A stretch of DNA of 32,239 bases, from IMG/VR virus record IMGVR_UViG_2645727843_000011, one strand, 5' to 3'. This stretch comes from a virus (lineage: Duplodnaviria > Heunggongvirae > Uroviricota > Caudoviricetes). The notes below the pieces were generated by a model. That model did no database searches and was not told the origin of the DNA. It saw only the letters and a list, made by a program, of their open reading frames with translations. A program made the translations under genes and the position numbers. Positions within the stretch are counted from its first letter, which is position 1, and each line of letters begins with the position of its first letter. This document shows, in pieces, positions 9,064-9,253 of the stretch.

Positions 9064-9078
9064 ATCTGACAGGTTGAG
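9064..9078 (+). repeat. Partial copy of the 16-bp site (atctgacag...gttgag)
   Basis: Matches the left half (atctgacag) and flank (ttgag) of copies A, B and C with the central tctgc missing. Confidence 0.4.
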
Positions 9079-9093
9079 TAGGTAGAATCTAAT

Positions 9094-9110
9094 CAAAGCT
9101 GACAGTCTGG
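9094..9110 (+). repeat. Copy B of the repeated site (aagctgacagtctggt), direct with A, inverted with C
   Basis: 11-bp core ctgacagtctg at 9099..9109, identical to the cores of A and of C reverse-complemented; flanks atcaaa...tttg are also shared with A. Confidence 0.6.
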
Positions 9111-9211
9111 TTTGGACTGTGAGTTCAACCGATGGATGCAACACACAGCGATCTACGGACATTACTAGCATAGCTGTGTATTAATCATCGGGAAGCAGGT
9201 CAGTCCGCTCC

Positions 9212-9253
9212 TAGCACAGAGCAGACTGTCAGATTAGGCTTTACTCTGTGCTA
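9212..9253. repeat. Copy C of the 16-bp site (9220..9235, inverted) embedded in a 10-bp perfect inverted repeat tagcacagag / ctctgtgcta
   Basis: Reverse complement of 9220..9235 is aatctgacagtctgct, identical to A; flanked by 10-bp arms at 9212..9221 and 9244..9253. Confidence 0.6.

Follow-up and report, generated by a model that had tools for sequence, protein, structure and literature searches.

Results

Cargo and conserved borders of the P2 hotspot

The virus record IMGVR_UViG_2645727843_000011 (Caudoviricetes), whose entire length of 32,239 nucleotides (nt) was analyzed here and is referred to as the window, is a P2-like prophage in which the tail sheath gene FI (5413-6603, minus strand) is separated from the fibre assembly gene G (9288-9815, minus strand) and the adjoining fibre gene H (9819-11924, minus strand) by a segment of low G+C content (6820-9202; 0.31-0.40 vs 0.55-0.60 in the flanks). 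This segment encodes a protein of 129 amino acids (aa), a 194-aa tyrosine recombinase and a DUF5677 protein, and it is bounded by short inverted repeats, which together with the recombinase are the subject of this study. The locus is the known Z/fun cargo hotspot between FI and G, reportedly treated by Nilsson, Karlsson and Haggard-Ljungquist in 2004 and by Rousset et al. in 2022. Other cargo was found between G and FI in 10 further P2-like loci, and the arrangement of the window was present in identical form in 36 complete Escherichia coli genomes, including those of S88, ATCC 11775 and PCN033.

Comparison of the window with P2-like phages that carry no recombinase revealed homology up to positions 6819-6822, which resumed at 9203-9215. 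When eight such phages with eight different cargos were aligned, the left border was conserved as ...ATCAAATCTGACAGTCTGCTTTGAGCGArrAGyGGAC, with variation starting directly thereafter, and the right border as GTCCGCTyyTGGCACAGAGCGGACTGTCAGATTAGGC..., with the cargo varying up to its first letter, so that conserved inverted repeats delimit the cargo in all of them. The innermost 24 bp of the left and right borders, here termed site I and site II, respectively, are palindromic, share the form GTCCGCT-N10-AGCGGAC and are mutually inverted in the window, and the cargo varies exactly at these 24-bp sites. On the backbone side both sites are continued by conserved extensions (Table 1), of which the left one contains two CTGACA motifs at a spacing of 33 nt. 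A strong intrinsic terminator between the hotspot and the start of FI (6707-6727, minus strand; GGCGGGCGAATTGCCCGCC and then a run of T) is a conserved feature of P2-like phages and is presumed to shield the FI operon against transcription coming from the cargo.

A preliminary description made from the sequence of the window had singled out three copies of a 16-bp repeat at this locus as a candidate invertible or excisable switch. The three copies are real and far above chance: copy A (6787-6802, plus strand) and copy C (9220-9235, minus strand) match the 16-mer AATCTGACAGTCTGCT exactly, copy B (9096-9111, plus strand) has two mismatches and contains the 11-bp core CTGACAGTCTG unchanged (9099-9109), and three matches with up to three mismatches were seen vs 0.26 expected, with none of 100 shuffled sequences reaching three. 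Copies A and C each consist of the inner arm of a 24-bp site (6796-6802 of site I and 9220-9226 of site II) and 9 bp of the neighboring P2 backbone (6787-6795, the final part of the left extension, and the beginning of the right extension up to 9235), and the inverted repeat that they form reaches 33 nt at 82% identity (6787-6819 and 9203-9235). As judged from the alignment of the eight phages, copies A and C are native P2 backbone. The 'half-site' noted earlier at 9064-9078 turned out to be the start of a longer 49-nt direct repeat (6757-6805 and 9066-9114; 71% identity), and the perfect 10-bp inverted repeat around copy C is present as described (9212-9221 and 9245-9254), its 3' arm lying in the right extension. 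The 11-bp core occurs four times in the window vs 0.01 expected; its fourth exact copy (26719-26729, plus strand), which had been missed in the preliminary description, lies within an open reading frame (ORF) of 775 aa (26106-28433, minus strand), has no site motif adjoining it and may be a coincidence or a P2-specific motif.

A family of small tyrosine recombinases bordered by the same sites

Membership of the recombinase in the tyrosine recombinase superfamily was apparent from the Pfam match (Table 1) and from R51 (in the motif LRGCDL), K79, H148-x-x-R151, H174 and Y183, which are invariant in the family alignment and whose roles were assigned from the canonical order of Xer/Cre motifs. The preliminary description had called the enzyme FimB/FimE-like; membership in that family was not supported, as the NCBIfam model NF007371 ('tyrosine-type DNA invertase') gave 19.2 bits vs a cutoff of 222. 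Xer-type models gave 46 and 39 bits, far under their cutoffs (46 vs 220 for the XerA/'integron integrase' model), and none of the integron-integrase family models matched the recombinase of the window at E <= 0.01. Instead, it is a truncated member of a family of about 200 aa (range 194-203 aa) that comprises at least 7987 clusters in the protein database, all of similar length and under generic names only. Protein identity amounts to 90-96% across about 25 enterobacterial genera and to 57-73% in Alteromonadales and Burkholderiales. Of 5426 E. coli genomes, roughly 900 contain the gene (about 90% nucleotide identity). It resides there in islands, such as that of strain Nissle 1917, in lambdoid prophages, on plasmids and in other surroundings, with different neighbors each time.

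A comparison of about 60 loci from some 25 genera showed that the DNA becomes variable directly beyond the ends of a module that contains the recombinase gene. The 5' border of this module reads GTCCGCTnnTCGCTCA... (in full GTCCGCTnnTCGCTCATAAGGGAC) and matches site I, while its 3' border, ...CCCTGTGCCAGrAGCGGAC, matches site II; positions 6796-6819 and 9203-9226 of the window are the reverse complements of site I and site II, respectively. The borders of the P2 hotspot are hence the same sequences as those that bound the recombinase gene elsewhere. The copy of the gene in the window deviates from the family in several respects: the conserved C-terminal tail DDALEISESIEV is replaced by IEGLF, two near-invariant positions of the family alignment are changed (N164S and R166W), no site II is present after the stop codon, where the family normally has one, and the site I at its 5' border is decayed. 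The same decayed 5' site I was found in a Buttiauxella array (locus L010) with the same DUF5677 neighbor.

At the start of the recombinase gene, the Shine-Dalgarno sequence and the ATG are both placed in the 3' arm of a stem-loop (Table 1; RNA fold of -17.4 kcal/mol, z -3.5), an arrangement shared by about 60 loci. Among 39 sequence variants the stem is preserved, most of the changes being compatible with G.U pairs on the sense strand, which suggests that the stem may occlude the translation of read-through transcripts, as in some insertion sequences.

Two-site junctions and cassette arrays

A search for the site motif returned 251 occurrences in 1.14 Mb of recombinase loci vs 5 in 0.46 Mb of shuffled sequence. 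Sites are organized in junctions of 62-67 nt, 37 of them distinct, which consist of site I, a spacer of around 18 nt and site II, with the 66-nt consensus GTCCGCTnCTCGCTCACAGCGGAC-N18-GTCCGCTnTGTGCCAGAAGCGGAC. Both types of site are in use across the Enterobacterales. The junctions separate single gene cassettes in co-oriented arrays, and in an array one junction is split by the recombinase gene. Of the sites-delimited material, 72 of the 78 segments delimited by sites follow the order site II, cassette, site I, with the same polarity as the recombinase gene. Among the cassettes are defense genes (NsnA, PD-T4-2, PD-T7-1/5, HEC, PtuA, a CBASS cyclase and GmrSD) as well as genes for transport, resistance and metabolic functions. 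The junctions possess strong dyad symmetry, with 75-87% paired cells vs 32-47% when the partners were slid, and the consensus junction folds as single-stranded DNA (ssDNA) with -22.3 kcal/mol (z -5.5). Neither target-site duplications at the cassette borders nor a transposase associated with these loci were seen.

An array of five sites is present in a non-phage island of E. coli Nissle 1917 (locus L006, 3841-8140). In this array a single cassette separates an intact recombinase gene from a P2-type site II with a TGTCAGATTAG extension; about 30 nt of the right backbone extension of the window (9227-9254) are thus shared with this non-P2 island. In Raoultella terrigena (locus L028, 5077-8603), the recombinase gene lies about 1 kb downstream of homologues of the P2 genes FI, FII and E and not at the G/FI position; other P2-like lineages may therefore dock arrays elsewhere.

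Cassettes shared between phage and non-phage backbones

Over 1957 nt, the cargo in the hotspot of Yersinia phage vB_YpM_46 shares 98.9% identity with a cassette that adjoins the recombinase gene in a lambdoid prophage of E. coli JS316. At one end the similarity breaks off inside site I, and at the other end it stops at the inner edge of site II. The same cassette was also found beside the recombinase gene in four viral contigs. Likewise, the unit 7352-9202 of the window is 96.8% identical to part of the Buttiauxella array and about 89% identical to a copy in a lambdoid prophage (locus L004). For four further cassette families, the position with respect to the recombinase gene varies between genera. 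Each of the six cassette families that were encountered in more than one context retains its polarity with regard to the sites, which indicates that the exchange is directional and not inversional. Moreover, the P2 hotspot of E. coli NQ3 (locus L097) contains two cassettes with a canonical junction between them. Such a two-cassette hotspot is the intermediate that would be expected if a junction-carrying circle inserted at a border site. In the same hotspot, a copy of the IS21-family element ISEc12 adjoins gene G.

Composite origin of the cargo in the window

The 129-aa gene in the left part of the cargo belongs to a cassette that is found alone in the P2 hotspot of strain IDR1900005638-01-02 (locus L096), where it is 98.7% identical to the remnant in the window, and that constitutes the second unit of the two-cassette array in the hotspot of E. 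coli NQ3. In strain IDR1900005638-01-02 the homology to the window ends at 7352 and is followed by 325 more nt and then by site II. Exactly at 7352, the homology of the window to the 129-aa cassette gives way to homology to the recombinase family, and at this scar (7352/7353), which does not coincide with a site, codon 189 of the recombinase gene is fused to the loop of the terminator of the 129-aa gene. This shared breakpoint implies that the window derives from a two-cassette array. Its ancestral order would have been G, site II, DUF5677 cassette, site I, recombinase gene, site II, 129-aa cassette, site I and FI.

Copy B is a decayed P2-type site I that was imported inside the DUF5677 cassette: together with the 'half-site' and about 40 nt of P2-like flank it forms part of the segment 9066-9160, and the decayed site accompanies the DUF5677 cassette in the lambdoid prophage L004 and in the Buttiauxella array, i.e. 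in contexts other than P2. The DUF5677 gene itself was always found with a recombinase copy whose flanking sites are decayed (the window and the two loci just mentioned), and the two genes may have become a fixed unit. PADLOC returned no match for the three cargo proteins of the window, and one preprint (PMC12632615) selected DUF5677 as a domain with candidate anti-phage function.

Orientation of the repeat-bounded segments in related genomes

The preliminary description had proposed that copies B and C bracket a fim-type invertible promoter of about 110 bp, that copies A and B bracket an excisable cassette and that copies A and C allow inversion of the whole cargo. A promoter scan detected no promoter-like site in 9110-9219 on either strand, and a query with 9096-9235 in inverted orientation gave no genome above 93.4% identity among 37 carriers, which are consensus assemblies from which rare subpopulations would escape. 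Each of the 36 genomes that contain the complete cassette aligns with the window in one colinear piece without inversion, and inversion between site I and site II was not seen anywhere across the recombinase family. The A-B geometry is incidental, because copy B is a decayed site carried within the DUF5677 cassette. We also considered A and B as attL and attR of an integrated element, and rejected this arrangement on two grounds: copy B and about 40 nt of its P2-like flank belong to the cassette in non-P2 contexts, and on its left the imported segment actually ends at the non-site deletion scar 7352/7353.

The variants that do exist are not located at the sites. In E. coli 98208 (locus L005), ISEc12 is inserted at the equivalent of 9054-9060, just upstream of the copy B region, with a 7-bp duplication. 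In E. coli IHE3034 (locus L003), the equivalent of 6768-7813 is deleted, starting from the first of the two CTGACA motifs in the P2 extension, so that copy A, the 129-aa gene and two thirds of the recombinase gene are lost.

Further features of the locus

The only content between the decayed site that includes copy B and the site II that includes copy C is a 42-nt sequence, here termed the X element. Its pattern, ATTrCTAAC...TTAATCA..GGGAGCAGGTCA, has 50 matches in 46 loci, abuts site I or site II in either orientation and occurs at the edges of some cassettes, being present in 13 of 78. A function of X as a promoter or Shine-Dalgarno leader was rejected on account of this low number of cassettes, because an ORF start follows only 8 of 52 X-like matches and because the promoter scan did not flag it. 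When the B-C segment (9096-9235, 140 nt) is folded as ssDNA, it forms one long imperfect hairpin (-28.8 kcal/mol, z -4.8) in which X pairs with the sequence just upstream of it. The features of the locus are compiled in Table 1.

Table 1. Features of the cargo hotspot and its borders, with positions in the window.
Feature	Position	Strand	Basis
P2 backbone extension outside the left border site	6757..6795	+	Conserved in 8 P2-like phages without recombinase
Site I, left hotspot border, 24 bp, GTCCACTTTTCGCTCAAAGCAGAC	6796..6819	-	P2-like homology ends at 6819-6822
Remnant of the 129-aa cassette (predicted membrane protein, ORF 6922-7311, +)	6820..7352	+	Cut in the loop of the terminator hairpin
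Tyrosine recombinase, 194 aa	7334..7918	-	Pfam PF00589, E 1.2e-16
Stem-loop, 15 bp, with GGAG Shine-Dalgarno sequence and ATG of the recombinase gene	7916..7954	-	Inverted repeat, 93%
Decayed site I, 5' border of the recombinase module, GTTGACTTATTTTCGCTCTTGAGAGAC vs canonical GTCCGCTnnTCGCTCATAAGGGAC	7958..7984	-	Comparison with about 60 loci
DUF5677 protein, 280 aa, cargo of the imported cassette 7985-9202	8025..8867	-	Pfam PF18928
Decayed P2-type site I with extension, ends in ...CAGCGATCTACGGAC	9066..9160	+	49-nt direct repeat with the flank of copy A
X element, 42 nt, ATTACTAGC...GGGAAGCAGGTCA	9161..9202	+	nhmmer E 1.2e-8
Site II, right hotspot border, 24 bp, GTCTGCTCTGTGCTAGGAGCGGAC	9203..9226	-	P2-like homology resumes at 9203
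P2 backbone extension, TGTCAGATTAGGCTTTACTCTGTGCTA	9227..9254	+	Conserved in 8 P2-like phages

Discussion

Probable cassette exchange at the borders of the hotspot

Our results suggest that the recombinase family and its sites probably constitute an integron-like system of cassette exchange, in which the borders of the P2 hotspot serve as sites and of which the window holds an array that is now frozen. The best-supported model for the exchange would be recombination between like sites by a dedicated small tyrosine recombinase. A P2 genome would then correspond to a junction whose 'spacer' is the whole phage, i.e. a split junction, and the recombinase would join site I with site I and site II with site II. 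A cassette could thereby leave an array as a circle and enter another junction or a P2 border, giving rise to a two-cassette intermediate from which a second event would then remove the old cassette. For the window, a plausible course of events is that the hotspot held the 129-aa cassette, that a circle with the DUF5677 cassette and a recombinase-bearing junction was taken up at site II, and that a later non-site deletion at 7352/7353 eliminated the part of the recombinase gene that encodes the tail, the site II behind it and 325 nt of the 129-aa cassette. Nothing suggests present-day activity in the window, because the recombinase is truncated and is the only copy in at least one carrier genome. 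The locus looks like a frozen two-cassette array, a fossil rather than a phase switch.

A broader proposal is more tentative: about one in six E. coli genomes, and other Enterobacterales, may carry a second integron-like system in which a recombinase of about 200 aa moves single-gene and often anti-phage cassettes via pairs of site I and site II among arrays, plasmids, lambdoid prophages and the P2 hotspot, the split junction of P2 being reloadable by a host that supplies the recombinase.

Several observations count against a site-specific system of this kind. The evidence for recombination is wholly comparative, with no event observed directly, and the short conserved borders could serve homologous recombination too. 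The genes inside cassettes point in both directions (83 plus and 91 minus), unlike those of integrons. An empty P2 hotspot was not found with a synthetic query of site I and site II, for which the best 40 of 214 near-full matches in E. coli were all in two pieces with cargo of at least about 840 nt between them. Covariation in the junction palindrome was no better than in shuffles, and folded-DNA (attC-like) substrates are consequently unsupported. That the full-length recombinase would be competent on such sites is made less certain by its small N-terminal part, the catalytic domain being preceded by only about 35 residues, and by the lack of a close solved relative, the nearest in a sequence search of the Protein Data Bank (PDB) being XerD with E 0.44; an AlphaFold model built from 30 close homologues was unusable (pLDDT 47). 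Finally, the recombinase of the window is truncated, and at least one carrier genome has no second copy of the gene.

The main rival is homologous exchange via conserved flanks, in which the borders would be conserved backbone elements, for example insulating hairpins after G and before the FI promoter, the cargo would be swapped by homologous or relaxed homologous recombination, and the recombinase would be mere cargo with similar flanks. We regard it as unlikely. It is in keeping with the location of copy C in a hairpin about 35 nt after the stop codon of G, with the real terminator at 6707-6727, with the presence of the borders in every P2-like phage without any recombinase, with the lack of covariation in the junction palindromes and with published discussions, which prefer homologous or illegitimate recombination at P2/P4 hotspots. 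However, a T-tract is absent from the hairpins, the copy C region shows an ordinary fold (z -1.7), and it is the 24-bp sequence itself, not just a structure, that is kept across P2 phages, lambdoid prophages, plasmids, islands and many genera. Homologous exchange would also leave the tight pairing of site I and site II and their constant polarity around the recombinase gene unaccounted for, 24 bp is very short for RecA-type exchange, and two-cassette arrays with a canonical junction are a prediction of site-specific insertion.

An active switch, in which the recombinase would control expression by inverting 9110-9219 (B with C) or the cargo (A with C) or by excising the cargo (A with B), appears highly improbable, although the geometry of the three copies fits it, the catalytic set R, K, HxxR, H and Y is intact in the ORF and the B-C segment of 140 nt has a strong, if imperfect, palindromic character. 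No product of inversion or excision was seen in 36-37 complete genomes or, for inversion between site I and site II, family-wide, no promoter is predicted between B and C, copy B is decayed and part of a cassette, and the recombinase is truncated, mutated at near-invariant positions and outside the FimB/FimE family. Furthermore, copies A and C are present in P2-like phages without the recombinase as native backbone, a finding that the preliminary description had itself reckoned as contrary to its proposal. What remains of that proposal is its link to site-specific recombination, in that site-like repeats are tied to a recombinase family in about 60 loci and the cargo varies at the sites, whereas a role in controlling the locus does not. 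There is similarly little to recommend a transposon-like element with the sites as its terminal inverted repeats, a transposase encoded elsewhere and the tyrosine recombinase as resolvase or passenger. Inverted repeats of 24-33 nt do flank the cargo, the recombinase module has inverted ends, and a hairpin masks the start codon, a trait of several insertion sequences; yet cassette borders show no target-site duplications, insertions are always at pre-existing sites with fixed polarity, and no transposase is associated with the loci. Cassette exchange between like sites remains the explanation that we favor.

Prior knowledge and significance

According to the review PMC8987985, Nilsson et al. 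described inverted repeats on both sides of the P2 fun gene in 2004 and connected them with site-specific recombination. To the extent conveyed by this citing review, both the hotspot repeats and the notion that site-specific recombination occurs there date from that year. According to a survey from 2026, the recombination processes at P2/P4 hotspots 'still need to be elucidated' (PMC13586616). The searchable literature, in which the study of 2004 is represented through the citing review only, contains no description of the recombinase family, of the two-site junctions, of the arrays or of their identity with the P2 borders, and the site sequence strings were found in none of its papers.

How phage and satellite hotspots swap defense genes so fast, including with unrelated elements such as plasmids, is an open question, to which the locus gives a testable answer for one P2 hotspot in the form of 24-bp border sites and a candidate recombinase that is common in E. 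coli, with two-cassette arrays and cassette circles as the predicted intermediates. If true, this would add a new cassette-capture platform beside integrons, provide a bait for new defense genes and offer a tool for site-directed cargo exchange in phages. For the window itself the practical message is modest, namely that its array looks frozen and is not a phase-variable switch.

Comparison with known systems

The position of a recombinase and inverted repeats beside phage tail-fibre genes is reminiscent of the inversion systems Gin of Mu, Cin of P1 and Pin of e14 and of the R64 shufflon (Rci). However, Gin, Cin and Pin are serine invertases that swap the C-termini of tail fibres, whereas the enzyme described here is a tyrosine recombinase, its cargo is unrelated to fibres and no inversions were seen; tail-fibre inversion and a shufflon were ruled out on these three grounds. 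The fim switch shares with the locus a tyrosine recombinase of about 200 aa that adjoins short inverted repeats, and differs from it in family (19 vs 222 bits), in the segment, which here contains no predicted promoter, and in orientation, a second one being absent from 37 genomes.

A likeness also exists to the pdif modules of Acinetobacter, which are gene modules bounded by inversely oriented short sites on varied replicons, with genes in either orientation. The pdif sites are 28-bp XerC/XerD sites of the form 11-6-11, while the sites described here are of the form 7-10-7 and unrelated in sequence, as far as comparison with the dif consensus by inspection goes. In addition, pdif sites are shared by neighboring modules and are acted on by chromosomal Xer, whereas here each cassette has its own pair of sites, the junctions contain two sites and a gene for a dedicated small recombinase is embedded in the array.

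With integrons the system has in common a tyrosine recombinase linked to co-oriented arrays of mostly single-gene cassettes, imperfect palindromes of around 60-70 nt between cassettes, diverse content that includes anti-phage genes and, the occurrence of the same cassette at different array positions, six families having been found at different positions or in different backbones. In contrast, the recombinase has only 194-203 aa compared to about 320 aa of IntI with its IntI-specific extra domain, and the junctions are composed of two GTCCGCT-N10-AGCGGAC sites instead of the R''/L''-L'/R' boxes of attC with their GTTRRRY core. Moreover, the recombinase gene is located inside a junction, while that of IntI is at one end beside the attI/Pc platform, the cassette genes point either way and single-stranded substrates are unsupported.

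With the P2 Z/fun hotspot as known before, the locus shares its position, the low G+C content of the cargo, the difference in cargo between otherwise similar phages and the inverted repeats that flank it. Here, by comparison, the cargo includes a gene for a tyrosine recombinase, and the border repeats are the very sites that bound this gene and separate cassettes in non-phage arrays.

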